Positions 3-26,501 of a DNA stretch of 64,000 nucleotides are shown here, one piece after another. The translations under genes were made by a program, and so were the position numbers. The stretch is taken from contig JAIPGM010000003.1 of NCBI GenBank assembly GCA_021735655.1, positions 32,001 to 96,000 of the forward strand, read 5' to 3'. Below the pieces are notes generated by a model. The model was given only the letters and a program-made list of their open reading frames with translations, did not search any database and was not told where the DNA came from. The DNA is from Candidatus Omnitrophota bacterium (GTDB lineage Bacteria > Omnitrophota > Gorgyraeia > Duberdicusellales > 4484-171). Numbering within the stretch: position 1 is the first letter of the stretch; the number at the start of each line of letters is the position of its first letter.

Positions 3-266
3 GGAAAGAACACAATATTAAATACATTATCTTCTATTGACCATGATTGTCAGATTGCAGATTTTGTCCATATTGCTCCCGGTACCAATTTAAGCGGCGG
101 GGTAACTATTGGCAAATTTACTCATATTGGAGTTGGTACAGTTGTTAACCAGGGAATTAATATAGGTTGTAATTGTTTAATCGGTTCAGGCAGCGTAGTG
201 GTTAAAGATATCATTGATAATTTAAAAGCCTTTGGGAATCCTTGTAAAGCTATGGAGAAGAGATGA
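3..266 (+). CDS. Hexapeptide-repeat acyltransferase, 3' fragment (NeuD/PglD-like sugar N-acetyltransferase); 5' end lies outside the window
   Basis: Frame 3 translates to ...HIAPGTNLSGGVTIGKFTHIGVGTVVNQGINIGCNCLIGSGSVVVKD..., the left-handed beta-helix hexapeptide pattern [LIV]-G-x4 found at the C-terminus of NeuD/PglD. It ends at the TGA at 264-266, overlapping the next start as ATGA. Confidence 0.55.
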   Translation, partial: GKNTILNTLSSIDHDCQIADFVHIAPGTNLSGGVTIGKFTHIGVGTVVNQGINIGCNCLIGSGSVVVKDIIDNLKAFGNPCKAMEKR

Positions 267-1159
267 TAAGAATTATACCGCGTCTTGATATTAAAGGTCC
301 TAATCTAGTTAAAGGAGTTCACCTTGAGGGCCTTAGGGTTTTAGGCAAGGCTGAAGATTTTGCTTCAAAATATTATACTGATGGAGCCGACGAGCTTATT
401 TATATTGATGTTGTTGCCAGTCTCTATGGTAGAGAAAATCTTTTAGAGATTGTAAGGAGAACAGCACAAAATATATTTATCCCTTTGACTGCCGGCGGTG
501 GGATAAGGACAATTGACGATATAAAAGAATTATTACGAGCCGGCGCAGATAAGGTAGCAATAAATACTGCTGCCATACGAAATCCAGCCTTTATTAGTGA
601 AGCTGCGAAAGTTTTTGGTTCGCAATGTATTGTTATTTCAATCGAGGCTAAATTTAGAAGTGAAGGTAAGTATGAGGCTTTAACTGATAATGGCAGGGAA
701 AAAACTGATCGTGATGTGTTTGATTGGGTACAGGAGGCGGTTGGCCTTGGTGCCGGAGAACTGCTTATTACTAGTATTGATAAGGAAGGTACTGGTAGAG
801 GATATGATTTGAAGCTAATTAAGAGAATTTCAGAGTCAGTGCCAGTCCCGGTTATTGCCTGTGGCGGTGCTGGAAAGACTAAGCATTTTCTTGAAGTCAT
901 TGAAGACGGTTGCGCCGACGCTATAAGTGCTGCTTCTATTTTTCATTATCATTGTCTAGAAAAGTTGCGCTCCGTTGAAAATTTTAAAGAAGAAGGTAAT
1001 GTTGAGTTCATTAGCCAGAATAGAGAATCATTAGATTTCATGAAAAAGCGGCTTGAACCAGTGGATATTTTAGCTGTTAAAAGATATTTATCTGATTTTG
1101 GTATTGCCTGTAGAGCCATAGAGGCGTTTAGAGAAGTTACAAAAGCAGAAAAGATATGA
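263..1159 (+). CDS. HisF-like imidazole-glycerol-phosphate-synthase cyclase subunit homologue (WbuZ-type, sugar amidotransfer)
   Basis: (beta/alpha)8 HisF motifs: RIIPRLDIKG, DELIYIDV, TAGGGIR and VIACGGAGK. It sits directly beside a HisH-like glutaminase and a PP-loop amidotransferase, as in wbuXYZ/pseA loci. The 298 aa is longer than canonical HisF, indicating a C-terminal extension. Confidence 0.8.
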   Translation: MIRIIPRLDIKGPNLVKGVHLEGLRVLGKAEDFASKYYTDGADELIYIDVVASLYGRENLLEIVRRTAQNIFIPLTAGGGIRTIDDIKELLRAGADKVAINTAAIRNPAFISEAAKVFGSQCIVISIEAKFRSEGKYEALTDNGREKTDRDVFDWVQEAVGLGAGELLITSIDKEGTGRGYDLKLIKRISESVPVPVIACGGAGKTKHFLEVIEDGCADAISAASIFHYHCLEKLRSVENFKEEGNVEFISQNRESLDFMKKRLEPVDILAVKRYLSDFGIACRAIEAFREVTKAEKI

Positions 1160-1848
1160 AAGGATCAAAGCCGATTACTGTGATAGTTGATTATGGAATG
1201 GGCAATCTTTTCAGTCTAGAGAGAGTGATAAGACATCTTGGCGGGACTGCAGTTATATCTTCCGACCCGGAAACTATAGCTTCTGCTGAGCGGGTTATTT
1301 TACCTGGGGTAGGTGCTTTTGGTGATGGTATGGATAAGATAAAAAATCGGGAGTTGGTTGCGCCGATACAAAGAGCTATTGATTCGGGTAAGCCGTTTCT
1401 AGGGATATGTTTAGGCATGCAGCTTCTTATGACCGAGAGTGAAGAGTTTGGTGTTCATGGAGGATTAGATGTTATTTCTGGGTCTGTGCGTAGGTTTTTT
1501 GATTCCAAGGGTGATAAGGCGTCCTATAAGATACCACACGTTGGATGGAACCGCTTGCTTGCTCCTAAGATAGTTGAATTCGGCCAGCCAGTTTCTTGCG
1601 AGGGAAGTAATAAATTTTGGGAGGATACTATTTTAAATACAACTCAAGAGGGTGAATTTGTGTATTTTGTGCATTCGTATACCGTTACCCCTCAGAACCC
1701 TGAGCATATTCTTGCTGAGACTGAATATGGTCAGTCTCGTTTTTGCTCGGCAATACGTTCCAACAATGTGTTTGGCTGCCAGTTTCATCCTGAGGTAAGT
1801 GCGAATGTAGGTTTACGAATCTTAAAAGAGTTTTTATATACTGTTTAA
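1156..1848 (+). CDS. HisH-like class-I glutamine amidotransferase (WbuY-type)
   Basis: VIVDYGMGNLFSL, GVGAFG, a GICLGMQLL catalytic-Cys nucleophile elbow, and a C-terminal FHPE...S motif typical of HisH. The 4-bp overlap with the upstream HisF-like gene suggests translational coupling. Confidence 0.8.
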   Translation: MKGSKPITVIVDYGMGNLFSLERVIRHLGGTAVISSDPETIASAERVILPGVGAFGDGMDKIKNRELVAPIQRAIDSGKPFLGICLGMQLLMTESEEFGVHGGLDVISGSVRRFFDSKGDKASYKIPHVGWNRLLAPKIVEFGQPVSCEGSNKFWEDTILNTTQEGEFVYFVHSYTVTPQNPEHILAETEYGQSRFCSAIRSNNVFGCQFHPEVSANVGLRILKEFLYTV

Positions 1849-1887
1849 GTTTACAAATAGGATTTTTGGCTAGAGAAAGGAGTAATA

Positions 1888-3087
1888 ATGTTATTTCCAG
1901 GAAAAACCTTAGATCGACAGTTGGCAAAAAGCCCCAAAGAGGTTAAATATTGTACAAAGTGCGTGGTTTCAAATCAAAGACCAAGAATTACCTTTGATGA
2001 AAATGGAGTCTGCAGTGCATGTAATTATGCTTATCTTAAGCATAATAAGATTGATTGGGCTAAAAGAGAGAAAATGCTGTTGGAGTTGCTTGATAAGCAT
2101 AGGTCCAGTGATGGAAGTTATGATTGCGTTGTTCCTGGTTCCGGCGGAAAGGATAGTAGTTATGTTGCGCATCAATTGAAATATAAATATCAGATGCACC
2201 CACTTACTGTAACTTGGGCACCTTTTATTTACACAGACGTTGGCTGGCAGAATTATATCGCCTTTAAAGATCATGGGTTTAATAATCTTTTGTGTTTTCC
2301 TGACGGAATAATCCATCGTAAATTAGCTCGTCTTAGTTTTGAATTGTTAGGTGATGCCTGGGAGCCTTTTGCTTATGGGCAAAAGGCATATGCTTTCCAT
2401 ATTGCTACTAAGTTCAAGATTCCTTTAATTTTTTATGGCGAAAGCGGTGAAGTAGAATATGGGGGCTCAACTACTTATATAGATAGTCCGGTAGAGCCAA
2501 CCGATAACTATAGCGAAGTTTATTATAAGGGCTCCGGGGTTGATGAAATTATAAAACATGGTCAAGATGTGGGACTGTTTAGCGAAGAAGAAGTAAAGAG
2601 TAATCCTTTTCAATTTTATCGGATGCCTCCACTTGAGGATGTAGAGAAACTTAAACCACAGATGCACTGGTTTTCTTTTTATAAAAAATGGGTGCCACAG
2701 GAGAATTATTACTACTCTGTTGATCATACTGGTTTTCAAGCAAATTTCGATGGGCGCTCAGAAGGTACCTATTCCAAATATGCTAGCTTAGATGATAAAA
2801 CTGACGGATTCCATTTTTATTTGGCATATATCAAGTTTGGTATTGCCCGAGCTACATCAGATGCTGCGCATGAAATCAGAGACGGGCATCTAACCAGAGA
2901 AGAAGGGGTAGCCTTGGTTCATCGTTACGATGGTGAACTTCCTAAAAAATATTTTAAGGAATTTCTTGAGTATTTAGATATTAAAGAAGAGCAATTCTGG
3001 GAAGTTATTGATTTTTATCGTTCACTTTCTCCCCATCTTTGGGAAAAAATAAATGGTGAATGGAAACTCAAACATAAAGTATTTTGA
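1888..3087 (+). CDS. N-acetyl sugar amidotransferase (WbuX/PseA family, PP-loop ATP pyrophosphatase)
   Basis: PP-loop SGGKDSS at residues 85-91 and a C-x-x-C pair near the N-terminus (CTKCVV...CSACNY). It follows the HisH/HisF pair. An AAGGAG RBS lies 9 nt upstream of the ATG at 1888. Confidence 0.75.
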   Translation: MLFPGKTLDRQLAKSPKEVKYCTKCVVSNQRPRITFDENGVCSACNYAYLKHNKIDWAKREKMLLELLDKHRSSDGSYDCVVPGSGGKDSSYVAHQLKYKYQMHPLTVTWAPFIYTDVGWQNYIAFKDHGFNNLLCFPDGIIHRKLARLSFELLGDAWEPFAYGQKAYAFHIATKFKIPLIFYGESGEVEYGGSTTYIDSPVEPTDNYSEVYYKGSGVDEIIKHGQDVGLFSEEEVKSNPFQFYRMPPLEDVEKLKPQMHWFSFYKKWVPQENYYYSVDHTGFQANFDGRSEGTYSKYASLDDKTDGFHFYLAYIKFGIARATSDAAHEIRDGHLTREEGVALVHRYDGELPKKYFKEFLEYLDIKEEQFWEVIDFYRSLSPHLWEKINGEWKLKHKVF

Positions 3088-3115: not shown

Positions 3116-4195
3116 ATGAAAGACATAAAAAAAATATTTGTAACTAGTAACAATACGATTGAAGAAACTTTAGCTGTTATCCAGCGTGGAGGTGTGGGCA
3201 TAGCTTTGGTTGTAGATAACCAGCAGCATCTAGTTGGCACAATAACTGATGGAGATATCCGTAGGGCTATTTTGAACAAAATCCCTTTAAGTAAAAAAAT
3301 CACTGTCTTGTTTGATTATCGTCCTGAAGACTACCCAGTCCCGGTTTCAATGCCTCATGACATAACTCGTGAAGAGCTCATTGAGATTATGAGTGAGAAA
3401 AAACTAAATCAAATACCGCTCCTCGATAGCGATTCCCACATCGTAGAACTAGCTTTACTTTCGGAGCTTGTCGAAGAAGAGCTTAACTTGCCGGTTAGAG
3501 CAGTAGTTATGGCTGGCGGAAAGGGGCAGCGGTTGCACCCGCTTACTAAAGATACACCAAAACCGATGCTTCTTTTAGAAGATCGTCCCTTGGTGGAACG
3601 TACCATAGCCCAGCTGCGTAGATCAGGAATTACAAAAGTAAATATTTCTACTCATTACAAATCTGATGTGATTATAAAACATTTTGGTAAAGGAGATGCT
3701 TTTGGTGTAGATATTGATTATATTAATGAAGATCAACCATTGGGTACTGCTGGAGCTTTGGGATTAATGAAACCCATTGATGAACCGACTTTAGTTATCA
3801 ATGGAGATGTGTTAACTAAATTAGATTTTCGTAGGTTGCTTGATTTCCATCGCCATCATGATGCGATAATGACTGTAGGGGTGCGCAAGTGCGAGATAGA
3901 GATACCTTACGGAGTTATTGATATTGATGATGTAGTCGTAAAAAAGATTATTGAAAAACCAGTAAAGAATTTTATTGTTAATGCCGGAATTTATTTGTTA
4001 GGACCAATAGCCTATAAGTATATTCCCAAAAATATAAATTTTGATATGACCGATTTAGTTGATGAGTTACTAAAAGCTAAGCATAAAGTAGTCTGCTTTC
4101 CGATACAGGAGTATTGGCTTGACATAGGACATCCTGAAAATTATGAACAAGCAAAGGAGGACATTAAGAATGGCGCACTTCAGCTGGAAAAATAA
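3116..4195 (+). CDS. CBS-domain pair fused to a sugar-1-phosphate nucleotidyltransferase (PtmE-like, possible GlcNAc-1-P guanylyltransferase)
   Basis: The N-terminal ~120 aa look like a CBS pair (VGIALVVDNQQHLVGTITDGDIRRAIL). The C-terminal domain carries the NTP-transferase signature AVVMAGGKGQRLHPLTKDTPKPML. This architecture matches the CBS-nucleotidyltransferase of legionaminic acid pathways. Confidence 0.65.
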   Translation: MKDIKKIFVTSNNTIEETLAVIQRGGVGIALVVDNQQHLVGTITDGDIRRAILNKIPLSKKITVLFDYRPEDYPVPVSMPHDITREELIEIMSEKKLNQIPLLDSDSHIVELALLSELVEEELNLPVRAVVMAGGKGQRLHPLTKDTPKPMLLLEDRPLVERTIAQLRRSGITKVNISTHYKSDVIIKHFGKGDAFGVDIDYINEDQPLGTAGALGLMKPIDEPTLVINGDVLTKLDFRRLLDFHRHHDAIMTVGVRKCEIEIPYGVIDIDDVVVKKIIEKPVKNFIVNAGIYLLGPIAYKYIPKNINFDMTDLVDELLKAKHKVVCFPIQEYWLDIGHPENYEQAKEDIKNGALQLEK

Positions 4196-5171
4196 AAAAG
4201 TTTTTGTTACCGGTGCCGGAGGATTTATCGGAAGTCACTTGTGTGAATGTTTAGTTAAGCTAGGCGCAAAGGTAAAGGCAATGGCAGAGTATAACTCCTT
4301 GGGAAGATGGGGTTGGCTTGATTATTCTAGTTTACATGATGAAATGGATATTTTTTTAGGCGATATCAGAGATAGAGACAGCACCAGAGAAGCTGTTAAG
4401 GGCCAGGATATGGTTTTTCACCTAGCGGCTCTTATAGGTATACCTTATTCTTATATAGCTCCAGCTTCATATATTGAAACTAATATAGCTGGCACTCTTA
4501 ATTTATTGCAAGCAGCAAGAGAGTATGATATCGAATGTTTTTTACAGACCTCAACTAGTGAGACTTATGGAACCGCTCAATATACCCCTATTGATGAAAA
4601 GCATCAACTTCAGGGTCAATCTCCTTATTCAGCTTCGAAAATAGGTGCAGACAAAATGGCAGAGAGTTTTTATCGTTCTTTCAAAGTTCCGGTAGTAACG
4701 GTTAGGCCTTTTAATACCTATGGCCCCAGACAGTCTGCCCGGGCAGTTATACCTACAATTATTACACAAATTTTAGAAAAAGATAAAGTCTGCATTGGTT
4801 CGCTTGCTCCCAGGCGTGATTTGACCTATGTCCAGGATATTGCCTTAGCCTTCATTGGTGCAGCCCAGGCAGGCAAATCTGCCTTTGGTGAAGTGTTTAA
4901 TGTTGGCTCGGGAAAGTCAATATCTATAGGTGAATTAGCCCAAGTGATTGCTAAGCTTATTGGAAAAGAGGTACCCGTAGAAAGCAGTTGCCAGCGTATA
5001 AGGCCAGAGGCTAGTGAAGTAATGTTGTTGATGGCAGATAGTAGTAAAGCTAAAAAAATATTTGGGTGGGAACCAAGCCTTTCTCTAGAAGAAGGACTCA
5101 AGAAAACAATTGAATGGTTTAAGGATAAGGATAATTTAAAGTTATATAAAAATGACCGTTATGTAGTATAA
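4170..5171 (+). CDS. NAD-dependent NDP-sugar 4,6-dehydratase/epimerase (extended SDR, LegB/PseB-like)
   Basis: Rossmann motif VFVTGAGGFIGSHL and catalytic YxxxK (PYSASKIGADK). The start is reassigned to the ATG at 4170, which is preceded by AAGGAGG at 4154-4160; the ORF-track start at 4143 would overlap the upstream gene by 52 nt. Confidence 0.7.
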   Translation: MAHFSWKNKKVFVTGAGGFIGSHLCECLVKLGAKVKAMAEYNSLGRWGWLDYSSLHDEMDIFLGDIRDRDSTREAVKGQDMVFHLAALIGIPYSYIAPASYIETNIAGTLNLLQAAREYDIECFLQTSTSETYGTAQYTPIDEKHQLQGQSPYSASKIGADKMAESFYRSFKVPVVTVRPFNTYGPRQSARAVIPTIITQILEKDKVCIGSLAPRRDLTYVQDIALAFIGAAQAGKSAFGEVFNVGSGKSISIGELAQVIAKLIGKEVPVESSCQRIRPEASEVMLLMADSSKAKKIFGWEPSLSLEEGLKKTIEWFKDKDNLKLYKNDRYVV

Positions 5172-5181
5172 GGTTAAAACA

Positions 5182-6381
5182 ATGAGCTCTATGAATAAAA
5201 AAATTACTGTCAGTACATCAATTAATGACTTAATTCCTTTAAGCGTTCCTGAAATTAAGGGTAATGAATGGAAATATATAAAGGAGTGCCTAGATACCAA
5301 TTGGGTTTCATCAGTAGGAAGTTATGTTGATCAATTTGAAAATGCTGTAGCTGATTATGTTGGGCGCGGTTATGGTGTAGCTTGTGTTAATGGTACATCA
5401 GCCTTGCATGTAGCTCTTTTACTTTCGGGTATAAAATCTCAAGAGGAAGTTTTACTTCCGGCGCTTACCTTTGTCGCACCGGCCAATGCTATTTGCTATA
5501 CTGGGGCAAAGCCAGTTTTTATTGACGTTGATCTTGATAATTGGCAAATAGATACAGGAAAGATTTTAGGGTTTTTGAAAAAAGAGTGTAAATATCAAAA
5601 AGGAAAGTTAATTAATAAGAATACCGGTAGAGTAATTAAAGCAATAATGCCTGTGCATATACTAGGACACCCGGCTGATATGGACGCTATCATGAGCATT
5701 GCCCGAAAATATAAACTAAAAGTTATTGAAGATGCTGCTGAAGGATTAGGGTCAGCCTATAAAAATCGACCTCTGGGAATTTCAGGAGATATTGCTTGTT
5801 TTAGCTTTAATGGAAACAAGATATTAACTACTGGCGGCGGAGGTATGGTTGTTGTTGATAAAAAATCCTGGTCTGATCGGGCCCGTTATCTTATAACTCA
5901 AGCCCGGAATAATGTCTTAGAGAATATTCACAATGAAATTGGCTACAATTACCGCCTGACCAATATTCAAGCTGCTATGGGTTTTGCCCAGATGGAGCAA
6001 CTCGATAAATTTGTTGAGAAAAAGAGAGATATTGCTCGTCGATATAATGAGCAATTAAAAGATGTACCGGGAATCGGCTTACCAAAAGAAGCTTCCTGGG
6101 CTAAATCCAATTACTGGCTATATACAATCTTTGTTGACAGAGCTAAATATAGAATTGATAGCAGAGCTTTATTAGAAAAACTAAAAAGATCTAATATCCA
6201 GACTCGGCCTCTGTGGCACCCTTTACATTCCCTAAAGCCGTTTAAAAAGTGTTTTTCTTACAAGATAAAAGTAGCCAATAAATTGTATAAAAATTGTTTG
6301 AGCTTGCCTTCATCAGTAGGGCTTACCAAGAGCGATCAAAAGAAAGTCATCGACATTATAAAACGCAGTAGGAGCTTGTAA
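5182..6381 (+). CDS. DegT/DnrJ/EryC1/StrS family PLP-dependent sugar aminotransferase (LegC/PseC-like)
   Basis: Fold-type I aminotransferase motifs: a GTSALHVAL, DAAEGLGS, and SFNGNKILTTGGGG in which the PLP lysine is present. Confidence 0.75.
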   Translation: MSSMNKKITVSTSINDLIPLSVPEIKGNEWKYIKECLDTNWVSSVGSYVDQFENAVADYVGRGYGVACVNGTSALHVALLLSGIKSQEEVLLPALTFVAPANAICYTGAKPVFIDVDLDNWQIDTGKILGFLKKECKYQKGKLINKNTGRVIKAIMPVHILGHPADMDAIMSIARKYKLKVIEDAAEGLGSAYKNRPLGISGDIACFSFNGNKILTTGGGGMVVVDKKSWSDRARYLITQARNNVLENIHNEIGYNYRLTNIQAAMGFAQMEQLDKFVEKKRDIARRYNEQLKDVPGIGLPKEASWAKSNYWLYTIFVDRAKYRIDSRALLEKLKRSNIQTRPLWHPLHSLKPFKKCFSYKIKVANKLYKNCLSLPSSVGLTKSDQKKVIDIIKRSRSL

Positions 6382-6393
6382 AAGGAGTAGTCT

Positions 6394-7434
6394 ATGAGCC
6401 CAGACATGAATATAGTGCGTTCCCAGAAACTTGCCGATAAAATTGTTATTGTAGACGGACAACCCGGTTGCGGTAAAACTATGCTTTCACCGATTGTTGC
6501 TGCTTTGGATAGGGTGGAGTTACTTATGTTTGTTTATGAGATAGAATATTTTTGCGCTTTAAGATATTTACAAAAAATGGATAAAGATACAGCCGAAACT
6601 TTAATTAAATTGATTACTGATTTAAGAATTTATAATGCAATGATGTCGCGGGAAGTAAATTTTCGCTTCAGCGATGCTTCAAGCGCCTTTAAAGATATAA
6701 ATCCCCTGAAATACATTAGGAGGCTTTTTCAAAAGGGTGATGACTTGGTCCCTGAAAGAATAAAGAACCAGAGACCAATTTTGCATTTGGCTACCCATGA
6801 TCTCTTAAGCAGGGCCGATTCAGTTTTTGCTGCTTTAGGTGAAAATCTTGTTTTTATAGAGGTGGTGAGGCATCCTTTATACATGCTTAAACAAGAAGCA
6901 GTTAATATGCAGCGGCTATTCTTATCCGATCCTAAGCATTTTGAAGTATATTTTTCTTATAAGGATAAAGAGTTGCCTTATTTTGTTTATGGGTGGGAGG
7001 ATTTATTTTTTTCTTCTAATCATATTGAAAAAGCTATCTATTTAATCAATAGCATGACTGAGAGAACAGAGGCTTTTAAGAATAATGTAGAGGAAAAGTT
7101 GAACGGAGCTAAGTTGATAACAATTCCTTTTGAAGGTTTTGTGATAAGTCCTGAACCTTATTTGAAAGAAATAGAATTAGCTTTAGACACAAAAGTAACT
7201 AAGGCTACGCGTAAAATGATGAAACGTCAGAATGTGCCACGTAAGATGTATGCTCAAGGTGTTAAACTCGATGTTTACGAAAAGTATGGATGGGAGGCAC
7301 CTAAATCAACAGATGAGTATAGTGAATTAAACCTGCGTCGGAAATTTGCCCAAGATAATGCTTCTGAGGATGCAATGGTTGTGCTTGATAGGCTTTCTAA
7401 AAAGTATGAAGATGAATATTTAAATAAAAAGTAA
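6394..7434 (+). CDS. P-loop (Walker A) protein of unknown function inside the nonulosonic-acid module; candidate kinase or sulfotransferase-like enzyme
   Basis: A Walker-A-like VIVDGQPGCGKTML lies near the N-terminus. No other family signature was recognised by eye. The gene is tightly packed between the aminotransferase and the cytidylyltransferase. Confidence 0.3.
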   Translation: MSPDMNIVRSQKLADKIVIVDGQPGCGKTMLSPIVAALDRVELLMFVYEIEYFCALRYLQKMDKDTAETLIKLITDLRIYNAMMSREVNFRFSDASSAFKDINPLKYIRRLFQKGDDLVPERIKNQRPILHLATHDLLSRADSVFAALGENLVFIEVVRHPLYMLKQEAVNMQRLFLSDPKHFEVYFSYKDKELPYFVYGWEDLFFSSNHIEKAIYLINSMTERTEAFKNNVEEKLNGAKLITIPFEGFVISPEPYLKEIELALDTKVTKATRKMMKRQNVPRKMYAQGVKLDVYEKYGWEAPKSTDEYSELNLRRKFAQDNASEDAMVVLDRLSKKYEDEYLNKK

Positions 7435-7448
7435 AAGAGAGGTTTATT

Positions 7449-8111
7449 GTGAAAACAATTGTATTAGTTCCGGCAAAACTTAAAAGTGACAGAGTTCCTT
7501 TTAAAAATATAAAACAGTTAGGTGGAGTTCCTTTAGTCAATTATACCATGCGTACTTTAAATAAACTTTCAGACATTAATGATATTGTTGTTTTTGCCTC
7601 AGAGCCTTCCATATGCGAGTATATACAGCGCGGATTAAAATATACATTCCTGGAGCGTCCGACAGAGCTGGATACTCAAGATACAAAAATACAGGATATT
7701 ATAAGAGAGTTTTTAAACAGAAGTGATGCCGATATAGTTGTCCTAGTGCATATTACTTCACCATTTTTGCAGGCTGAAACAATCTCTGACTGCATAAAAA
7801 AGGTTCATTCTGGTCAGTATCATACAGCTTTCACTGCATATGAAGTTAGAAAATTCTGTTGGTTTCGCGATAAACCGCTTAACTATTCTTTAGATAAACC
7901 TACACCACGCACTCAGGATATAAACCCGGTAGTTGTAGAGCAGGCTAGTTTATATGTATTTAGGAGAGAGGTTTTTGAAAAAACAGGCCAGCGGATTTGC
8001 TCTAAGCCTTATATTAAATATATTGATCATTTCGAGGGCCATGATATTGATACTCCGGAAGACTTTAGGGTTGCAGAATTGATTGTTAATACAGGTCTCT
8101 TTGCAATATAG
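7449..8111 (+). CDS. Acylneuraminate cytidylyltransferase family (CMP-nonulosonic acid synthetase, NeuA/LegF/PseF-like)
   Basis: N-terminal VLVPAKLKSDRVPFKNIKQLGGVPLVNYT matches the CMP-NeuAc/CMP-Kdo synthetase glycine-rich loop. GTG start with an AGAGAGG RBS upstream. Confidence 0.75.
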   Translation: MKTIVLVPAKLKSDRVPFKNIKQLGGVPLVNYTMRTLNKLSDINDIVVFASEPSICEYIQRGLKYTFLERPTELDTQDTKIQDIIREFLNRSDADIVVLVHITSPFLQAETISDCIKKVHSGQYHTAFTAYEVRKFCWFRDKPLNYSLDKPTPRTQDINPVVVEQASLYVFRREVFEKTGQRICSKPYIKYIDHFEGHDIDTPEDFRVAELIVNTGLFAI

Positions 8112-8122
8112 GATGTAATTAA

Positions 8123-9262
8123 ATGGATCAAGAAACAATTTTTAAGAAAATTTACAATGTCGAACTTAACCAGGATAAGTATGACATTGTAATTGGTAAA
8201 GGTTTACTTGAAACTGCTGTTTTAGAAGCCTTAGAGAAACGGACTAAAAATAAGAATGTTGTTTTTGTCTTTGATGTATTTTTTCAAGATAGAAGCAATG
8301 CTTTTATAGATTTTTTATCTAAGGCTGGCTACAAAGTTTACCCATATTATATGGTAGCTGGCAAGCATAATAAAACTATAAGTGAGGCAATAAAAATATA
8401 CGAAATTCTTGAGGCTAACAGTCTATCTAGAGACTCAACTATAGTAGCTTTAGGAGGTGGTGTTCTTGGCGATTTAGCTGGATTCGTAGCAAGCACATAT
8501 CATCGCGGGATGAAGCTTATAAATATACCGACCACCCTTACGGCCATGATTGACAGTAGCATTGGAGGCAAGGTCGCTATAAATTTCAGAAAGACTATTA
8601 ATGCCATAGGAAATTACTATCATCCTATAGCAAATGTTATTGATTTTAAATTTATTAGTACATTACCTCAACGTGACTTTAAGGCTGGACTGGCTGAGAT
8701 AATAAAATGTGCAATTATTAACGATAAAGAACTGTTTGATTATCTTAAATCTAATAGCCAGAAGATTCTTGACCGGGATGAAGATTCTTTATTCAATATC
8801 ATGTGTCGAGCCATAGAGATTAAACTTGTTCATGTATCAGGGGATGTGAAGGAGAAGAATGAGAGACTCAAGCTCAATTACGGCCACACCTTAGGACATT
8901 CCATAGAGATTTCGACCGATGTCTTAGAGGAGATTTATCGCCATGGAGAGGGGGTGTCTCTTGGCATGGTTGCTGCAGCATTTTTGGCAAGAAAATATTT
9001 TGGACAAGGTCAAGATATCTTAGATGCTCATGAGGAGATTCTTAACCAGTATGGCCTTCCAACCCGAGTTCATGCAAAAGATATTGGTTTTGAATATAAG
9101 AGTTTGATTGAAGAATGTATGCGAAATGTTCATAAAGATAAAAAGAAAAAGGATAACAAACTCAGATTTATTCTTCCTGATGAAATTGGTAAATGCCAGG
9201 TCTACGATCGTGTGGCAGATGATGCTATCAGGGAGGCATTTGTTTATCTTATAAAGGAGTGA
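8123..9262 (+). CDS. 3-dehydroquinate synthase-like sugar-phosphate cyclase superfamily protein
   Basis: Signature of the DHQS/2-deoxy-scyllo-inosose synthase family: ALGGGVLGDLAGFVASTYHRGMKLINIPTTLTAMIDSSIGGKVAINF. Metal-binding histidines are in the C-terminal half (NYGHTLGHSIE). Confidence 0.7.
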   Translation: MDQETIFKKIYNVELNQDKYDIVIGKGLLETAVLEALEKRTKNKNVVFVFDVFFQDRSNAFIDFLSKAGYKVYPYYMVAGKHNKTISEAIKIYEILEANSLSRDSTIVALGGGVLGDLAGFVASTYHRGMKLINIPTTLTAMIDSSIGGKVAINFRKTINAIGNYYHPIANVIDFKFISTLPQRDFKAGLAEIIKCAIINDKELFDYLKSNSQKILDRDEDSLFNIMCRAIEIKLVHVSGDVKEKNERLKLNYGHTLGHSIEISTDVLEEIYRHGEGVSLGMVAAAFLARKYFGQGQDILDAHEEILNQYGLPTRVHAKDIGFEYKSLIEECMRNVHKDKKKKDNKLRFILPDEIGKCQVYDRVADDAIREAFVYLIKE

Positions 9263-9263
9263 T

Positions 9264-10025
9264 ATGAAAGAAAAAAAATCTTTAGAAAGAAAAACTTGTA
9301 TTATAACTGGATCTGGTAAGGGAATTGGAAGAGCAGCCGCAGAGCTTTTTTATAATCATGGGGCTAACTTGGCATTGATTACCAGAGATAAACAAGACTT
9401 GATATCCTTAAGGGACGATGTCGGATTTGACGATGAACGAATTTTTCTAAGCCAGGGAGACGTCTCTGATGAGGAAACGGTTAAAAGATTCATACAAGAA
9501 ACTATAGGAAAATTTAAAAAAATAGATGTTCTTATTAATAATGCCGGTATACGTTTCAGGAAAGATTTTTTAGACACCACGACAGAGGAGTGGGATCAAG
9601 TAATTAATAATAACCTCAATAGCACATATCTTTTTTCTAGGGAAGCAGGGCGAAATATGGTTTCAAGAAAAGAGGGCAAAATTGTTAATATTGTATCGAT
9701 TGTAGGTACGCTTGGATTGCCTCAGCTTTCCGCATACGGAGCATCAAAAGGAGGAGTAATCACGCTTACGAAATGCTTAGCTTTAGAGTGGGCCAAATGC
9801 AATATTAATGTTAACGCTATTGCCCCAGGATTTTGCGAAACATCGTATGTAGAAAAGTTTAGAAAAAAAGAAGAACTATATAAATTTACTATAGAAAGGA
9901 CGCCGCAGAAAAAATGGGGAACTTCTCTTGACATAGCAGAAGCCTGTCTTTTCTTATCCACAGAAGCATCTAAGTATATTACTGGTGAAGTGTTAAATGT
10001 TGATGGTGGTTGGAGTGCTTGGTAA
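9264..10025 (+). CDS. Short-chain dehydrogenase/reductase (SDR, FabG/PtmA-like)
   Basis: TGSGKGIGRAAA (TGxxxGxG), NNAG, and YGASKGG (YxxxK). Confidence 0.8.
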   Translation: MKEKKSLERKTCIITGSGKGIGRAAAELFYNHGANLALITRDKQDLISLRDDVGFDDERIFLSQGDVSDEETVKRFIQETIGKFKKIDVLINNAGIRFRKDFLDTTTEEWDQVINNNLNSTYLFSREAGRNMVSRKEGKIVNIVSIVGTLGLPQLSAYGASKGGVITLTKCLALEWAKCNINVNAIAPGFCETSYVEKFRKKEELYKFTIERTPQKKWGTSLDIAEACLFLSTEASKYITGEVLNVDGGWSAW

Positions 10026-10109
10026 AAATAATAAATTAAGAATAAAAAATGTTTTAAGATAGTAGAAAATTATTGTATTTTGTAATTAATATTGAGACAA
10101 ATATTTAAA

Positions 10110-12260
10110 ATGGGAATGAGGGGTGAGGAGAAAAATAATCAGAGAAGTTATTATATACAAAATCTTACAGTCGCTCCTTGGCTAGTATCGATAGCTCCTT
10201 ATCTAATGCGTAATTTTTTCAAGGGGAATAGAAATATCAAAGTTTATTTTATCGATGCTTCAATATGTGGTTTATGGCTGGCGCGCTTCATGTTATTATT
10301 TTTTGGTCTCAAGCTTAATGAGTTGAAATTTCGTTTGGTTGATGTCCATGATGACGATGGTGTTCTTCTGCATCTACGAGTAGATTATTTTGATTCTACG
10401 GTTGTGCAAAAATATATATTGGAAAGGCCTATTTTCTCGGAGCTGTTTTTAAACAAGCCTGCTAAAAGTAGAATAGCTATGTTTTTGGCAAAACGCATTT
10501 TTGCCTCTGCTAGTAAGCCTGAATCGACATTAGATAGAGCAGTTTATCTCATTCAAGTAGTTAAGCAAAAGTCAAAAGAGTATGTAGCTGAATGCTTGCA
10601 GCCTGTTTTGTTTTTGGACAGAAGGTTGTGGATGAATGAAATTAAAAGATATGCGTGCAAGCATAATATATCTGTTATTGGCGCTAAAAGTTTTAATATC
10701 AATTTTAAATATTTTTTATTAGGGTTTTTGGGACCAAAAATAAATATTTTAAAAAATATCTATTTTTGGTTTTTAAGAATAAAAAGAAGTTTTTGCAGTA
10801 AGTATGGCTGGATTGTTAAAAATAAGAAATCAATTTCAATCGTTATCAGACATAAAAAAAATAATGCAGATAATAGCATTATTGGTAGCCAGGTAAAGCT
10901 TGGGGTTAACTATTATGGTCATCTTAATCTTAATAATCCAGAACTGTATTCGGATTTATTTTTTTTACAGCAGTCAGATTTATCAGGAAAAGATATTTTA
11001 ATCGTATCTAATATGCTGTTTGATCCCATTGATGATAAAAAATTAATGGAGATTGCCAAGCATGATATGAATGTAGTTGCGCTTTCAGCAAAGGCAACTA
11101 ATAGTTTTTCCGTGCCGTTTTTTTACCATTGGCCGAGTCGTAGCTCAAATTCATCGTTTAAGTTTATCTCAAAAAATGCTTATAATGGCGATGAGCGCAG
11201 ATGGTTTCTGCGGCAGATGAGAGACTACTATAAGGATTGTAATTATTGGCAGGATTTTTTTGCAAAGCATAATGTTAAGGCATTTATGACTTGGTATAAG
11301 TATGATGCTTCTCACTGTGTTGTTGCCGATGCCATGCGGAATGTTGGAGGAATAATGGCTGTTTATCAACGCGCCTTTGAGGAATTTCCTTCTTGCAAGA
11401 CAACGATTGCGTCTGATGTTGTGTTTGGTTTTTCGCCTGCAAATGCTGAGATTGAACGTCTTTCCGGTTCACAGATTTCCTACCATATTTCTACAGGTTA
11501 TTATGCTGACTACAGGCTACCTTTGCTAAAGGCGCATGCACAGAGGGTGCGCACATCTCTACAGCAAAGAGGAGCTAAACAAATTATTGCTTATTTTGAT
11601 GAAAATTCCGGAGCTGATTCTCGTTGGCATAATGGGCATGAATCTACAATAGCTAATTATGATTTTTTACTTAAAAAAGTTTTATCTCAAAAATGGTTTG
11701 GTCTTATTTTAAAACCTAAGGTTCCCTCAACGTTAAGATTGAGGCTGGGGCTAACGGCAGACTTACTTAAGGAAGCAGAAGCAACTGGAAGGTGTTTTGT
11801 CTTTGAGGCAGGGGCCTTGCATAGTGCCTACCCTCCCGCTATAGCTGCTCTAGCTTCTGATATCGCCATCCACGGTCATCTGTATGCTGCAACAGCTGGG
11901 CTTGAATCAGCGCTTGCAGGAGTCCCTACTCTTTTACTTGATCGTGAAGGCTGGTCGATTAGTAAATTATACCATTTGGGTTTAGGACGGGTAGTTTTTA
12001 CTGATTGGCAAAGTCTTTGGAAAACATATATTGAATATTGGCAGGATTCCAGGAAGGTGCCAGGCTTCGGCGATTGGTCTTCGATGATAAATGATTTAGA
12101 TCCTTTCAGAGATGGCCGAGCAGCAGAAAGAATAGGTACATACTTGAAGTGGTTGCTTGACGGCTTTAAGCAAGGGCTTAAACGAGAAGATATTATGGCT
12201 TCTGCCGCAGAGCGTTATGCTAGGATTTGGGGAAGTGATAAAATAGCTACACTGGGGTAG
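10110..12260 (+). CDS. Large hypothetical protein (about 715 aa); the C-terminal region resembles GT-B glycosyl/phosphoglycosyl transferases of capsule or teichoic-acid type
   Basis: Long + strand ORF. The start is uncertain: the track gives a TTG at 10092, and the first in-frame ATGs are at 10110 and 10116. The C-terminal segment ...EAGALHSAYPPAIAALASDIAIHGHLYAATAGLESALAGVPTLLLDREGW... looks like a GT-B C-terminal nucleotide-binding fold. An AT-rich 85-bp intergenic precedes it. Confidence 0.3.
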   Translation: MGMRGEEKNNQRSYYIQNLTVAPWLVSIAPYLMRNFFKGNRNIKVYFIDASICGLWLARFMLLFFGLKLNELKFRLVDVHDDDGVLLHLRVDYFDSTVVQKYILERPIFSELFLNKPAKSRIAMFLAKRIFASASKPESTLDRAVYLIQVVKQKSKEYVAECLQPVLFLDRRLWMNEIKRYACKHNISVIGAKSFNINFKYFLLGFLGPKINILKNIYFWFLRIKRSFCSKYGWIVKNKKSISIVIRHKKNNADNSIIGSQVKLGVNYYGHLNLNNPELYSDLFFLQQSDLSGKDILIVSNMLFDPIDDKKLMEIAKHDMNVVALSAKATNSFSVPFFYHWPSRSSNSSFKFISKNAYNGDERRWFLRQMRDYYKDCNYWQDFFAKHNVKAFMTWYKYDASHCVVADAMRNVGGIMAVYQRAFEEFPSCKTTIASDVVFGFSPANAEIERLSGSQISYHISTGYYADYRLPLLKAHAQRVRTSLQQRGAKQIIAYFDENSGADSRWHNGHESTIANYDFLLKKVLSQKWFGLILKPKVPSTLRLRLGLTADLLKEAEATGRCFVFEAGALHSAYPPAIAALASDIAIHGHLYAATAGLESALAGVPTLLLDREGWSISKLYHLGLGRVVFTDWQSLWKTYIEYWQDSRKVPGFGDWSSMINDLDPFRDGRAAERIGTYLKWLLDGFKQGLKREDIMASAAERYARIWGSDKIATLG

Positions 12261-12298: not shown

Positions 12299-13051
12299 GT
12301 GAATATACAAATTTTTATAAAAAAAGTTAAAAATAAACTGAAAACATTTTGGTTGCAAATAGCTACCTTAAGGAGTGCTAATTTGCGTTGGTTGTTTCGG
12401 AATCGTTATTTGCGTATGGATGCTAATGTAACAACAAATCCGGTTGAGAGAAGGATTTTTCATATTGATCGATATAAATTCGCCGTGAATAAACTTAGAA
12501 AAGTTTATAGCGATACAAGGAATTTACTTATTGTTGATGTTGCTTGTGGTACAGGGTATGGCTCGGATATTTTAAAAAAAGTTAATCCGAAAAAAATAAT
12601 AGGTATTGATATTTGTCCTGAGACAGTTAAATATGCTCAAAAAAAATATGGAACGCATCATTGTATTTTTAATACTAGCGATGCTGTCGAAATGAATATT
12701 ATTAAATCAGGAACTGTCGATGTGGTCGTTTCATTTGAAACCATTGAGCATTTAGAGCAGCCGATAATTTTTTTGAAGAACGTAAAAAGGGTATTGAAGA
12801 ATAAAGGATGCTTAATTATTTCCACACCTAATAGTTGGGGAGAAACAAGAGACCATAGGTTTGATTATGATTATCAATTGCTGAAGACTCACCTTGAACA
12901 ATTCTTCACGATAGACTCTATGTATGTTCAAAATAGCGGAAGTATGAATTTATGGATGAATAGAGGTTTTCAGCGGCGGTTAATTCCAGTGAGTCCCGAT
13001 AACGTTAATGAGGCCGAATGTTTTATAGCCATAGCCAGAAATTATTTTTAA
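12299..13051 (+). CDS. Class I SAM-dependent methyltransferase
   Basis: Motif I LIVDVACGTGYGSDIL, and VVVSFETIEHL as a motif II/post-I region. GTG start at 12299; an alternative ATG lies at 12416. Confidence 0.7.
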   Translation: MNIQIFIKKVKNKLKTFWLQIATLRSANLRWLFRNRYLRMDANVTTNPVERRIFHIDRYKFAVNKLRKVYSDTRNLLIVDVACGTGYGSDILKKVNPKKIIGIDICPETVKYAQKKYGTHHCIFNTSDAVEMNIIKSGTVDVVVSFETIEHLEQPIIFLKNVKRVLKNKGCLIISTPNSWGETRDHRFDYDYQLLKTHLEQFFTIDSMYVQNSGSMNLWMNRGFQRRLIPVSPDNVNEAECFIAIARNYF

Positions 13052-13061
13052 TAGTGTTGTT

Positions 13062-14018
13062 TTGTGCAGAGCGAATAAATTTATGAGAAATAAAATTAAT
13101 TTTTTAAAGGGATATGTCAAAAGGTATGTAGTTGCTGCATATAAACGACAGAAGTTACAGGCAGGTGAGTTTCCCCCCCAGCTATGGATAGAGAATACCA
13201 ATCATTGTAATGCAGCGTGTGTCATGTGTCCTCGTGATAAGCATAATCGGTCGCTTGGTTTTATGGAGTTTTCCCTTTTTGAACGTCTGATTAAGGAAAT
13301 AGCTGTACATAAAAATAATGTTTCAGCTGTTCATATGCATAATTATGGCGAACCGCTTATGGATAAAGAATTAATCAAAAAAGTAAAACTAGCTAAGGAT
13401 TATGGGATAAAACATGTTTATTTTGTTACCAACGCAGCATTGTTGACTAGTGATTTATCAGAAAAGCTAATAGCCTCAGGGCTTGATCAATTTAAAATAA
13501 GTTTTTATGGAACCGATAGACAAACATATAACGCTACAATGAGAGGGCTTGATTTTGATCAAACAATGTCTAATGTTAAGCAATTTTTCCAAATACGAAA
13601 GAAGATGAAGTCCCTTCAACCTAAAGTTATAATTCAATACCTTCCTCAGTCTCACAACAAGGCAGAAATTAGCAAATTTAAAAGTATTTTTGATTCCATG
13701 ATTGATTCTAAATTAGGCGATAGGTTGAATATTTATTCTTTGTTGAATTTCGGGGAAGGGAGAAGTTATAATAACTTTGCCAGAAGAATAGTTAGTTCAA
13801 TATGCAATTATCCGTGGAGGACTATGGTGGTATTGCATGATGGCCGGGTTACGGCTTGCTGTATGGATTATAATGGGGTTTTATCTATGGGAAATGTTAC
13901 TCAGAGCACTATAAAGCAAATATGGAATAACCAAACTTATAAAAAAATCAGAGAGGATTTTAAAAAGCTTGATTACAAAGAATACCAGGTTTGTAGAAAT
14001 TGTGATCTTATTTTTTAG
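13062..14018 (+). CDS. Radical SAM enzyme with SPASM-like C-terminal cysteine cluster
   Basis: CNAACVMCPRD carries the CxxxCxxC 4Fe-4S/SAM motif. Additional C-terminal cysteines (ACCMDYNG ... CRNCD) are consistent with an auxiliary-cluster (SPASM/twitch) domain. Confidence 0.65.
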   Translation: MCRANKFMRNKINFLKGYVKRYVVAAYKRQKLQAGEFPPQLWIENTNHCNAACVMCPRDKHNRSLGFMEFSLFERLIKEIAVHKNNVSAVHMHNYGEPLMDKELIKKVKLAKDYGIKHVYFVTNAALLTSDLSEKLIASGLDQFKISFYGTDRQTYNATMRGLDFDQTMSNVKQFFQIRKKMKSLQPKVIIQYLPQSHNKAEISKFKSIFDSMIDSKLGDRLNIYSLLNFGEGRSYNNFARRIVSSICNYPWRTMVVLHDGRVTACCMDYNGVLSMGNVTQSTIKQIWNNQTYKKIREDFKKLDYKEYQVCRNCDLIF

Positions 14019-14028
14019 GTAAATTTTT

Positions 14029-23990: not shown

Positions 23991-24776
23991 ATGAAAGCAG
24001 TAATATTATGTGGAGGAAGAGGGACAAGAATTAGAGATGCCTCAGAAGTTTTACCTAAGTCAATGCTTCCGGTGGGCAATATGCCCTTGCTTTGGCATAT
24101 AATGAAAATTTACGCTCATTATGGGATAAAAGATTTCGTTTTATGCCTTGGTTATAAAGGGTGGGCGATAAAAGAGTTTTTTTTAAATTATCAAGCTAAG
24201 GTTTTTGATGTAGTGTTGAAGTTAGATAAAGAAAATTCAATAATTTATGGCCAAAACCATCATGAAAAGTTAGATTGGAAAATCTCGCTTGTAGAAACAG
24301 GCGAAGAATCACAAACCGGAGCAAGAATTTGGAATGCACGCAAATATTTAGAAGATTGTGATATGTTTTGTGTAACTTATGGTGACGGTGTTGGCAATAT
24401 CGACATCAAATCTTTAATAGAAGTTCATAAAAAATCGGGTTTACTTGGCACAATAACTGGAGTTCATCCTTCAGGCCGTTTTGGCGAAATAGAGACAAAA
24501 GGTAAGATTATTTCTTCTTTCGCAGAGAAGCCAAATGTAAGCTTTGGTTCTTATAATGGCGGGTTTATGGTTTTTGATAGAAAAGTTTTAGGAAAATATT
24601 TTAGATCTGGAAAAGATTTGATATTGGAGGCAGAAACTTTGCCTAATATGGTGAATGACAAGCAGTTAGGAATATATGAGCATAATGGTTTTTGGCAATG
24701 TGTTGACACTAATCGGGAATTAGAAATATTGGAGGGTTTATGGAATTCTTCTAATCCTCCTTGGAAAGTATGGTGA
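23991..24776 (+). CDS. rfbF: Glucose-1-phosphate cytidylyltransferase
   Basis: MKAVILCGGRGTRIRDASEVLPKSMLPVGNMPLLWHIMKIYAHYGIKDFVLCLGYKGWAIKEFF is highly similar to the RfbF/DdhA N-terminus (AVILAGGLGTRL...KPILWHIMKIYS). It is followed by a 4,6-dehydratase and the E1 dehydrase. Confidence 0.85.
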   Translation: MKAVILCGGRGTRIRDASEVLPKSMLPVGNMPLLWHIMKIYAHYGIKDFVLCLGYKGWAIKEFFLNYQAKVFDVVLKLDKENSIIYGQNHHEKLDWKISLVETGEESQTGARIWNARKYLEDCDMFCVTYGDGVGNIDIKSLIEVHKKSGLLGTITGVHPSGRFGEIETKGKIISSFAEKPNVSFGSYNGGFMVFDRKVLGKYFRSGKDLILEAETLPNMVNDKQLGIYEHNGFWQCVDTNRELEILEGLWNSSNPPWKVW

Positions 24777-26490: not shown

Positions 26491-26501
26491 AGCTTTAAAT
26501 A

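Follow-up and report, generated by a model that had tools for sequence, protein, structure and literature searches.

What is a gene for a 3-dehydroquinate synthase (DHQS), an enzyme otherwise associated with the shikimate pathway, doing in the middle of a set of genes for a bacterial surface sugar? The question is raised by a 64-kb stretch of DNA from a Candidatus Omnitrophota bacterium (contig JAIPGM010000003.1, positions 32,001 to 96,000), the whole of which is referred to here as the window; coordinates count from its first letter unless another locus is named. Nearly all of the genes in the window are on the + strand, its G+C content is about 36%, and among its products are glycosyltransferases (families 1, 2, 4 and 9), Wzy_C proteins, the enzymes of several nucleoside diphosphate (NDP)-sugar pathways and an ATP sulfurylase; as a whole it is a surface-polysaccharide or lipopolysaccharide (LPS) locus. 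A Leptospira rfb locus was at first considered, in view of the low G+C content, the use of one strand and TIGRFAM names that seem to stem from Leptospira, but was rejected because three window proteins are 100% identical to proteins of a Candidatus Omnitrophica metagenome-assembled genome. An earlier inspection of the DNA letters (the sequence-only reading) listed seven open reading frames (ORFs) between 3116 and 10025, and both their coordinates and their + strand orientation proved correct. It interpreted them as a nonulosonic acid (NulO) module interrupted by two genes from outside any described NulO pathway, one for a P-loop protein (6394-7434) and one for a DHQS-like enzyme (8123-9262), and the placing of these two genes outside the described NulO pathways that could be found is borne out, as the former has no Pfam or NCBIfam family and the latter matches only aroB/DHQS models. 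The two are not independent inserts, though. Our best explanation, to which as a whole we give about even odds, is that the region consists of two biosynthetic units fused in a single operon, a legionaminic acid (Leg) set followed by an accessory cassette (6394-12260) that makes a second acidic sugar. The modular architecture is well supported, while every chemical step of the second unit is something that we infer. The identities of the cassette genes are established as follows.

6394-7434, + strand: sulfotransferase-fold protein of 346 aa with a Walker-A-type loop (G22QPGCGKT) and a second motif (R159..Q167), founding member of an unannotated family.
7449-8111, + strand: second, divergent CTP_transf_3 cytidylyltransferase, belonging to clade B (220 aa; Pfam CTP_transf_3, E = 1.9e-18).
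8123-9262, + strand: AroB-like DHQS paralogue dedicated to the glycan locus (DHQ_synthase and DHQS_C domains; TIGR01357, 318 bits, cutoff 305).
9264-10025, + strand: classical short-chain dehydrogenase/reductase (SDR), a FabG/KduD-like ketoreductase and partner of the DHQS (Pfam adh_short_C2, E = 7.7e-62).
10092-12260, + strand: protein of 722 aa (684 aa in the NCBI call) with a glycosyltransferase-B (GT-B) fold (AlphaFold2 pLDDT 81; Foldseek).

The three central genes of this cassette (the trio of cytidylyltransferase, DHQS and SDR) are best understood by comparison with related loci. The sequence-only reading had assigned 7449-8111 as the cytidine monophosphate (CMP)-NulO synthetase and 9264-10025 as the SDR of the Leg route, and neither assignment is likely to hold. 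A LegF-like CTP_transf_3 protein of 236 aa and another SDR already adjoin NeuB upstream of the window, and 7449-8111 is therefore a second copy. The upstream protein scores 153 bits with the PseF model (cutoff 206), versus 75 bits for 7449-8111, for which PseF is the best equivalog and KdsB models give 48 bits or less. When all CTP_transf_3 proteins of 21 related loci are placed in a neighbour-joining tree, the upstream protein falls in the clade of NeuB-linked, LegF-like enzymes and 7449-8111 in a separate one, clade B, whose members are fused to cupin domains or are encoded next to DHQS or HpcH-aldolase genes. It shares the CTP_transf_3 domain with the synthetases of CMP-sialic acid, CMP-NulO and CMP-Kdo (3-deoxy-D-manno-oct-2-ulosonic acid), namely NeuA, PseF, LegF and KdsB, and carries an N-terminal PAK..K..R..KN motif and a C-terminal DIDTPEDF motif that we take to be typical of this family, but it lies under every equivalog cutoff and in a clade apart.

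The same trio is present in loci that contain no NulO genes. The complete genome of Sulfurovum mangrovi and Arcobacteraceae contigs have the genes in the order CTP_transf_3 / DHQS / SDR / CTP_transf_3 within an LPS-core-type locus, and the first cytidylyltransferase, the DHQS and the SDR of S. mangrovi (CP087124.1) are 47%, 52% and 57% identical to their window counterparts. On a contig with a DHQS gene that NCBI assigns to a Zambryskibacteria metagenome-assembled genome, a Wzm/Wzt transporter is followed by DHQS / SDR / CTP_transf_3, the DHQS and SDR being 59% and 69% identical to those of the window. NeuB, the LegB/LegC pair and the P-loop gene are all absent from the trio loci of S. mangrovi, Arcobacteraceae and the Zambryskibacteria-assigned contig. 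The trio occurs there without NulO genes at 47-69% identity, whereas identities of only 21-33% separate the cytidylyltransferase and SDR of the window from the Leg-type copies upstream (31-33% for the SDR). The sequence comparisons thus indicate that the trio is a portable unit, complete in itself, which activates the product that it makes, and that 7449-8111 and 9264-10025 are probably not Leg-pathway enzymes. The loci from S. mangrovi (L027; record positions 2103096-2124223) and Arcobacteraceae (L029 and L030) are nearly identical, and in each the trio lies between two CTP_transf_3 genes directly after an Elm1-like gene (PF06258), GT4 glycosyltransferases and an LpxL-type (lipid A) acyltransferase, which suggests that the trio product of Campylobacterota may enter the LPS core.

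The linkage of the trio to the sulfotransferase-fold gene also recurs. The order P-loop / cytidylyltransferase / DHQS is kept in loci L002-L004 and L026, with protein identities of 35-79%, and is followed by the SDR in L002-L004, the SDR being absent from L026; the DHQS neighbourhood as such recurs in L002-L004 and L026-L030. We also examined 26 loci centred on the sulfotransferase-fold gene, obtained from a scan of species representatives (20 loci), look-ups of homologue contigs (five) and the window contig itself (one). A DHQS-like gene lies within 10 kb of the sulfotransferase-fold gene in 19 of the 26, and the phyla in which the two co-occur include Omnitrophota, Margulisiibacteriota, Acidobacteriota, Nitrospinota, Planctomycetota, Gemmatimonadota, SAR86, SAR11 and others. 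The sulfotransferase-fold gene usually stands directly after LegC or WbuX and directly before a clade-B cytidylyltransferase, an SIS isomerase or a protein of about 700 aa of the type encoded at 10092-12260. Leg-type genes are found in most of the 26 loci. Five of them (L008, L010, L013, L016 and L023) have a full DHQS module and no NeuB, LegB, LegC or LegG gene within 10 kb; three of these five also have WbuXYZ genes.

The DHQS of the window is above the cutoff of the aroB model, and its best matches in the Protein Data Bank (PDB) are true DHQSs, led by the Vibrio cholerae enzyme (3OKF, 190 bits), with the cyclases DOIS, ValA and DDGS scoring much lower. A tree places it with genuine AroB proteins, that of V. 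cholerae being 37% identical to it. An alignment of 13 locus DHQSs, the window enzyme and 12 others, has twelve invariant residues (R128, D144, K150, N160, E192, K234, R248, N252, H255, H259, H274 and K340), and the same twelve are seen when 8123-9262 is aligned to V. cholerae AroB; we take them to be the residues that bind the metal, the phosphate and the carboxylate in the Aspergillus nidulans enzyme. What sets it apart from AroB of the shikimate pathway is its setting, a surface-glycan operon with a cytidylyltransferase and an SDR rather than aro genes, and no aro gene adjoins the DHQS in the window, in L002-L004 or in L026-L030; as evidence on function, such context is indirect. Its best 120 homologues are 50-71% identical to it, are called 3-dehydroquinate synthase where they are named, and come from Omnitrophota, Ignavibacteriae, Brocadiaceae, Deltaproteobacteria, Saganbacteria, Zambryskibacteria, Sulfurovum and Arcobacter.

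The DHQSs of these loci form two groups. The AroB-like group comprises those of the window, L002-L004 and, more distantly, L026; the larger group corresponds to TIGR04425, an AroB-related putative sugar phosphate phospholyase (cyclizing) that fills the equivalent slot of the cassette in most other phyla, near an SDR, a CTP_transf_3 gene and the sulfotransferase-fold gene. The window enzyme is not a member of the latter (215 bits, cutoff 400; 25% identity to the group), whereas the L008 homologue scores 469 bits. The two groups also differ in their companions. In the AroB-like loci the DHQS is always accompanied by at least one CTP_transf_3 gene and, except in L026, by an SDR, and these are the only partners: GmhA-like, phosphoglycerate dehydrogenase (PGDH)-like and DHQS-adjacent IolG-like genes are absent. 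In the TIGR04425-type loci an IolG-like GFO oxidoreductase adjoins the DHQS in nearly every case, and there is usually a GmhA-like SIS isomerase, one or two SDRs, a cupin-cytidylyltransferase fusion and an aminotransferase, with a PGDH-like 2-hydroxyacid dehydrogenase in about half; the GmhA-like, IolG-like and PGDH-like proteins and the cupin fusion are all missing from the window. Judged by these gene contents, the isomerase, an aldose oxidation and a 2-hydroxyacid oxidation could turn a heptose phosphate into a 2-keto-acid phosphate resembling 3-deoxy-D-arabino-heptulosonate 7-phosphate (DAHP) in the TIGR04425-type module, and the AroB-like version would skip those steps and draw DAHP from primary metabolism. 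Because two different DHQS lineages fill the same slot, the cassette appears to need DHQS chemistry itself. A DUF4862 protein also recurs in the TIGR04425-type module (L008 3948-4922, L013 12889-13923 and L023 6281-7264). PDB sequence searches with it and with a neighbouring protein of 277 aa gave no match, and no relevant mention of DUF4862 or TIGR04425 was found in the literature searched.

The protein encoded at 6394-7434 was described in the sequence-only reading as a P-loop protein. A Walker A motif is indeed present, but the protein is better described by its sulfotransferase fold. The fold is settled. There is no match to Pfam or NCBIfam at E ≤ 0.001 and none in a PDB sequence search; weak Sulfotransfer_3 matches are seen in nine of 19 relatives, the best with E = 6.7e-4, and none in the window protein itself. 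The family is large. An indexed search returned 473 homologues with 48-73% identity, all of those named by their source being hypothetical proteins, and an exhaustive profile search matched the representative sequences of 1,364 clusters (50% identity), with E ≤ 1e-30 in 453 cases. Its alignment has four invariant blocks, GxxGCGKTMLSPI, NFRxxDxSS, RHPLY..Q and QxVPR. In canonical sulfotransferases, the donor 3′-phosphoadenosine 5′-phosphosulfate (PAPS) is bound by a 5′-phosphosulfate-binding (5′-PSB) motif, (K/R)xGTT, and a 3′-phosphate-binding (3′-PB) motif in which an arginine is followed by a serine with the spacing R..8..S. The window protein is 11-15% identical to PAPS-dependent enzymes (tyrosylprotein sulfotransferases, mycobacterial Stf and CurM/OLS domains) and departs from them in both motifs: its loop is GCGKT, a kinase-type Walker A, instead of (K/R)SGTT, and its second motif, R159-HPLYMLK-Q167, has the arginine and the spacing of the 3′-PB motif with glutamine in place of the serine. 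Elsewhere in the window (51710-54469) a Glyphos_transf-family protein is followed by the ATP sulfurylase, which has a PUA-like domain (52800-53903), and by an ORF of 180 aa. The sulfurylase was considered as a source of PAPS for 6394-7434 and dropped: the adjacent ORF has no Pfam or PDB match and is not a recognisable adenosine 5′-phosphosulfate (APS) kinase, and none of L002-L021 encodes a homologue of the sulfurylase. As it is neither linked to an APS kinase nor conserved, it lends no real support to sulfation by 6394-7434.

The last gene of the cassette encodes a protein with no Pfam, NCBIfam or PDB sequence match, and its assignment comes from a structure prediction that used database homologues. 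Foldseek searches with this model recover UDP-N-acetylglucosamine 2-epimerases, HepE (GT4), the polysialyltransferase 5wcn and OtsA, with E values down to 5e-7 and template modelling (TM) scores of at most 0.61 (target). Homologues adjoin the sulfotransferase-fold gene or a DHQS module in at least 11 loci, and from the predicted fold the protein is a candidate transferase for the cassette product. In the window it is followed (12299-15828) by a methyltransferase (12299-13051), a radical-SAM/SPASM protein (13062-14018) and a protein of 599 aa that matches TIGR04326 weakly (14029-15828). In L004 the GT-B protein is again followed by genes of these three kinds (radical-SAM, methyltransferase and 599-aa), and the 599-aa protein is found in L003 and L009 as well; L004 further has a B12-binding radical SAM gene between the cassette SDR and the GT-B protein.

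The first unit lies immediately upstream of the cassette and begins before the start of the window, whose own contig was retrieved for a further 9.7 kb in that direction (L001; the window starts at L001 position 9739). The genes of this unit that fall within the window are as follows.

3-266, + strand: C-terminal end of a NeuD/PglD-type (LegH-like) N-acetyltransferase with hexapeptide repeats, the start of which lies upstream of the window.
263-1159, + strand: HisF-like protein of the WbuZ type (TIGR03572, 281 bits, below the cutoff of 300).
1156-1848, + strand: HisH glutaminase (TIGR01855, 196 bits).
1888-3087, + strand: WbuX N-acetyl sugar amidotransferase (TIGR03573, 342 bits, cutoff 203).
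3116-4195, + strand: PtmE-like sugar-1-phosphate nucleotidyltransferase with an N-terminal CBS domain (Pfam CBS, E = 2.5e-10; NTP_transferase, E = 8.8e-42).
4143-5171, + strand: LegB-type NAD-dependent NDP-GlcNAc (N-acetylglucosamine) 4,6-dehydratase (TIGR04180, 443 bits, cutoff 475).
5182-6381, + strand: LegC-family pyridoxal-phosphate-dependent aminotransferase (TIGR04181, 489 bits, cutoff 420; PseC, 273 bits).

Approaching the window, the genes of L001 are the end of a NeuB-CTP_transf_3 fusion, a DegT aminotransferase, a 428-aa protein, three GFO/IDH/MocA-type proteins, the 236-aa CTP_transf_3 protein, the SDR, NeuB (L001 7129-8172; NeuB_NnaB, 466 bits, cutoff 400), a hydrolysing 2-epimerase of the NeuC/LegG type (L001 8169-9335; NeuC_NnaA, 483 bits, cutoff 236) and the NeuD-type acetyltransferase, complete at 216 aa (L001 9354-10004; NeuD_NnaD TIGR03570, 206 bits, cutoff 161). 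The arrangement of GFO, cytidylyltransferase and SDR genes beside NeuB presumably matches that of the ptm genes Cj1330-Cj1332 of Campylobacter jejuni. The sequence-only reading had recognised the acetyltransferase fragment, had inferred a legionaminic-type NulO locus and had expected the synthase and the 2-epimerase to lie upstream. All three points are confirmed by the extended contig: LegC, NeuB, NeuC and NeuD pass curated cutoffs, both the NeuB and NeuC genes are within 2.6 kb of the window start, and no NeuB-family gene is present among the ORFs scanned downstream within the window.

The enzymes of the CMP-legionaminic acid pathway are PtmE, LegB, LegC, LegH, LegG, LegI and LegF (PMC5378307), and all seven functions of the C. 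jejuni/Tannerella forsythia pathway have a homologue in the window or directly upstream. That the window and its upstream region encode the full enzyme set for a Campylobacter-type CMP-Leg route is thus well supported by the profile matches. The PtmE-like protein, LegB and LegC (3116-6381) would make NDP-4-amino-4,6-dideoxy-GlcNAc, and the upstream NeuD/LegH, NeuC/LegG, NeuB/LegI and LegF-like cytidylyltransferase would complete CMP-Leg. There are departures from the C. jejuni/T. forsythia system in that LegB (443 versus 475 bits) and the LegF candidate (153 versus 206, PseF model) are under their cutoffs, and in that the window genes are interleaved with the WbuXYZ set and followed by five extra genes without counterpart there. 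The second-best model for LegB, dTDP-glucose dehydratase, reaches only 166 bits, far under TIGR04180, and the likely start of this gene according to the gene caller is 4170 (L001 13908-14909). The combination of CBS and NTP_transferase domains in the PtmE-like protein, and its position, recur beside LegB/LegC in nine loci; its nearest NCBIfam models, mannose-1-phosphate guanylyltransferase and archaeal GlmU, both fall below cutoff. GTP specificity is known only for PtmE of C. jejuni (PMC5378307), and the PtmE-like architecture suggests GDP-linked intermediates in the Leg route of the window. The WbuZ, HisH and WbuX genes (263-3087), which were absent from the list of the sequence-only reading, lie between the NeuD-type gene and PtmE and are part of the same sugar pathway as the Leg set; to judge from their family names, WbuX/Y/Z probably convert one of the N-acetyl groups to acetamidino. 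The same triplet is directly upstream of the sulfotransferase-fold gene in five other loci (L008, L010, L018, L022 and L023). The Leg part is, in sum, an ordinary new member of a known pathway.

How closely are the two units joined? The gaps between genes from 5171 to 10025 are 1-14 nucleotides; none of them holds a promoter-like or terminator-like site, and such sites are as frequent as in shuffled sequence. Because the gaps are this short and none contains a terminator, the genes in this interval are read as one operon. A comparison with L003, from another Omnitrophota contig (JAHKAJ010000015.1), gives a mosaic of identities: HisF, WbuX and PtmE are 91-95% identical, LegB through the SDR only 62-70%, and the GT-B protein 49%. 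This mosaic suggests a recombination breakpoint between PtmE and LegB, such that LegB and LegC may travel with the cassette.

What might the cassette make? Our proposal, for which and against which the odds seem to us evenly balanced and whose chemistry we infer from the enzyme families, is that it assembles a second acid from DAHP, activates this acid with CMP, transfers it and perhaps also sulfates it. With DAHP or a closely similar 2-keto-acid phosphate as substrate, the DHQS would carry out its normal NAD- and metal-dependent phosphate elimination (cyclisation), the SDR would reduce the ketone formed, and the dedicated CTP_transf_3 enzyme would make the CMP ester of the resulting seven-carbon α-hydroxy acid. 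This activated acid could be a quinate-like carbocycle or, if trapped before ring closure, a 3,7-dideoxy-heptulosonate; in the latter case, the SDR would trap the ring-opened 2,6-diketo intermediate to give a compound able to behave like Kdo. The GT-B protein (10092-12260) would then add the acid to the glycan, and the sulfotransferase-fold protein would add a sulfate, or possibly a phosphate, either to the NulO or to the residue made by the trio.

Several points weigh against this proposal. A CMP ester of a carbocycle has no ring oxygen, the atom by which glycosyl transfer is normally stabilised, and would therefore be a poor and chemically awkward glycosyl donor; the dideoxy-heptulosonate option needs interception of a DHQS intermediate. 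Candidate-phyla-radiation bacteria such as Zambryskibacteria are generally without a shikimate pathway, and for this reason DAHP may not be the substrate everywhere. The carboxylate-binding DHQS residues are assigned by analogy with the A. nidulans active site. The GxxGxGKT loop of 6394-7434 and its glutamine in place of the 3′-phosphate-binding serine mean that PAPS use is not assured, and the ATP sulfurylase, with no APS kinase recognised and no counterpart in L002-L021, is 43 kb away. Seven of the 26 loci are without DHQS, and although four of these seven are on contigs shorter than 15 kb, L006, L020 and L021 have full 10-kb flanks. In L020 and L021, a clade-B cytidylyltransferase is close to an HpcH-type pyruvate aldolase gene, as a result of which the activated acid may differ between lineages. 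Finally, no literature was found on the cassette or on the product chemistry of its members.

Other explanations share some of these observations. The layout implied by the sequence-only reading, in which 7449-8111 is the CMP-Leg synthetase, 9264-10025 a PtmA-like SDR of the Leg pathway and the P-loop and DHQS genes unrelated insertions, draws on the occurrence of both enzyme families in Leg loci and on the reading of the genes as one operon with LegC. We regard it as very unlikely, given the better LegF candidate and the other SDR beside NeuB, the closer relationship of the window proteins to the DHQS partners of NulO-free loci than to the Leg-type copies, and the conserved P-loop / cytidylyltransferase / DHQS order in L002-L004 and L026. 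That 8123-9262 is simply a housekeeping shikimate aroB lodged by chance in a polysaccharide operon would account for its NCBI name, its score above the aroB equivalog cutoff and the retention of all catalytic residues checked. The same subfamily (50-71% identity), however, is found between a cytidylyltransferase and an SDR in Omnitrophota, Campylobacterota and the Zambryskibacteria-assigned contig, no other aro gene adjoins it in the loci examined, and a second subfamily, TIGR04425, takes the equivalent place in other phyla, so that a chance location is highly improbable.

Two further alternatives are harder to set aside. The cassette might tailor Leg or CMP-Leg itself, for instance by epimerisation, keto-reduction, re-activation or O-sulfation, without any separate sugar, and the position of the sulfotransferase-fold gene inside or beside Leg-type or WbuXYZ genes in most loci, usually directly after LegC or WbuX, is as expected from such a role. 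Set against this are the occurrence of the trio without any NulO genes, the DHQS modules of L008, L010, L013, L016 and L023 with none of the four Leg-type genes nearby, and the structure of Leg, which has no phosphate and is 9-deoxy and so would offer no obvious DHQS substrate. We think this unlikely for the cassette as a whole; for the sulfotransferase-fold protein alone a Leg-tailoring role is plausible, but not for the trio. The DHQS-like enzymes might instead be sugar-phosphate cyclases of the 2-epi-5-epi-valiolone or 2-deoxy-scyllo-inosose synthase type, acting on sedoheptulose 7-phosphate or glucose 6-phosphate and supplying a neutral C6 or C7 cyclitol to the glycan. The name of the widespread subfamily TIGR04425 (469 bits, cutoff 400), sugar phosphate phospholyase (cyclizing), points this way, as do its companions, a homologue of the GmhA-like sedoheptulose-7-phosphate isomerase, an IolG-like dehydrogenase and aminotransferases, which recall aminocyclitol pathways; in addition, candidate-phyla-radiation bacteria may be without DAHP. 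The window enzyme, though, passes the aroB equivalog cutoff, and both subfamilies keep the Lys/Arg pair that binds the DAHP carboxylate in the A. nidulans enzyme. Moreover, the family of the activating partner works on α-keto or α-hydroxy acid sugars and not on cyclitol phosphates, and the PGDH-like 2-hydroxyacid dehydrogenase of the long module fits the making of a 2-keto acid. On balance the neutral cyclitol is a doubtful explanation, and a role as its synthase is possible mainly for the TIGR04425 type. A DAHP-derived, CMP-activated acid is the reading that we prefer.

Sialic acid, Leg, pseudaminic acid and Kdo shape how hosts, phages and predators see bacterial surfaces, and their pathways are considered well mapped. 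Literature searches found nothing relevant that connects dehydroquinate synthase to O-antigen, a cytidylyltransferase or either legionaminic or nonulosonic acid, or a sulfotransferase to legionaminic acid; no link of the P-loop or DHQS-like gene to NulO loci was found, and the SugarBase preprint does not mention quinate, shikimate, cyclitol or sulfate. The cassette is thus not described in the literature searched, and its parts are labelled "hypothetical", "3-dehydroquinate synthase" or "AroB-related putative sugar phosphate phospholyase". What emerges is an accessory cassette conserved across many phyla, made up of a sulfotransferase-fold family, the DHQS/reductase/cytidylyltransferase trio and a new GT-B family. 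The possibility that the trio stands for a class of CMP-activated surface sugar not yet recognised is a real one; if the proposed chemistry is right, a reaction of the shikimate pathway has been co-opted for a new, ulosonic-acid-like sugar of this kind. The most general form of the idea, that many phyla use a recruited DHQS on DAHP or a DAHP-like acid to make a CMP-activated seven-carbon surface acid that the new GT-B protein installs and that is often sulfated, is a tentative one and on present reckoning improbable. The presence of the trio in cultured S. mangrovi, with a near-identical locus in Arcobacteraceae, makes the question directly testable. For part of the cassette, the current annotation as "3-dehydroquinate synthase" or "hypothetical" is misleading, and genome-scale metabolic models that count the DHQS gene as aroB may wrongly infer a shikimate step.

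Some other features of these loci deserve mention. The far upstream part of the window's own contig (L001 1-5625) encodes a 587-aa NeuB-CTP_transf_3 fusion, a PseC/LegC-like aminotransferase, the 428-aa protein and the three GFO/IDH/MocA-type proteins, a gene set from which a further nonulosonic acid pathway may be suspected in this locus. HpcH/HpaI-type pyruvate aldolase genes are near CTP_transf_3 genes of clade B in L015, L020 and L021, and of another type in L023; in SAR11 and other marine bacteria, such loci may make a 3-deoxy-2-ulosonic acid by way of an aldolase and independently of NeuB. B12-binding radical SAM enzymes of one family (F21) are encoded in several glycan loci, including the window (44957-46396), L003, L004 and L013. 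Further along the window, positions 23991-32498 encode a sugar nucleotidyltransferase and a protein of the NDP-sugar dehydratase family, and after these a metallo-β-lactamase (MBL)-fold protein, an acylating acetaldehyde dehydrogenase (DmpF-like), an HMGL aldolase (DmpG-like), a thiamine-diphosphate enzyme, an epimerase and a DegT aminotransferase; in gene content the set resembles a route to a deoxysugar that is branched or extended by two carbons.

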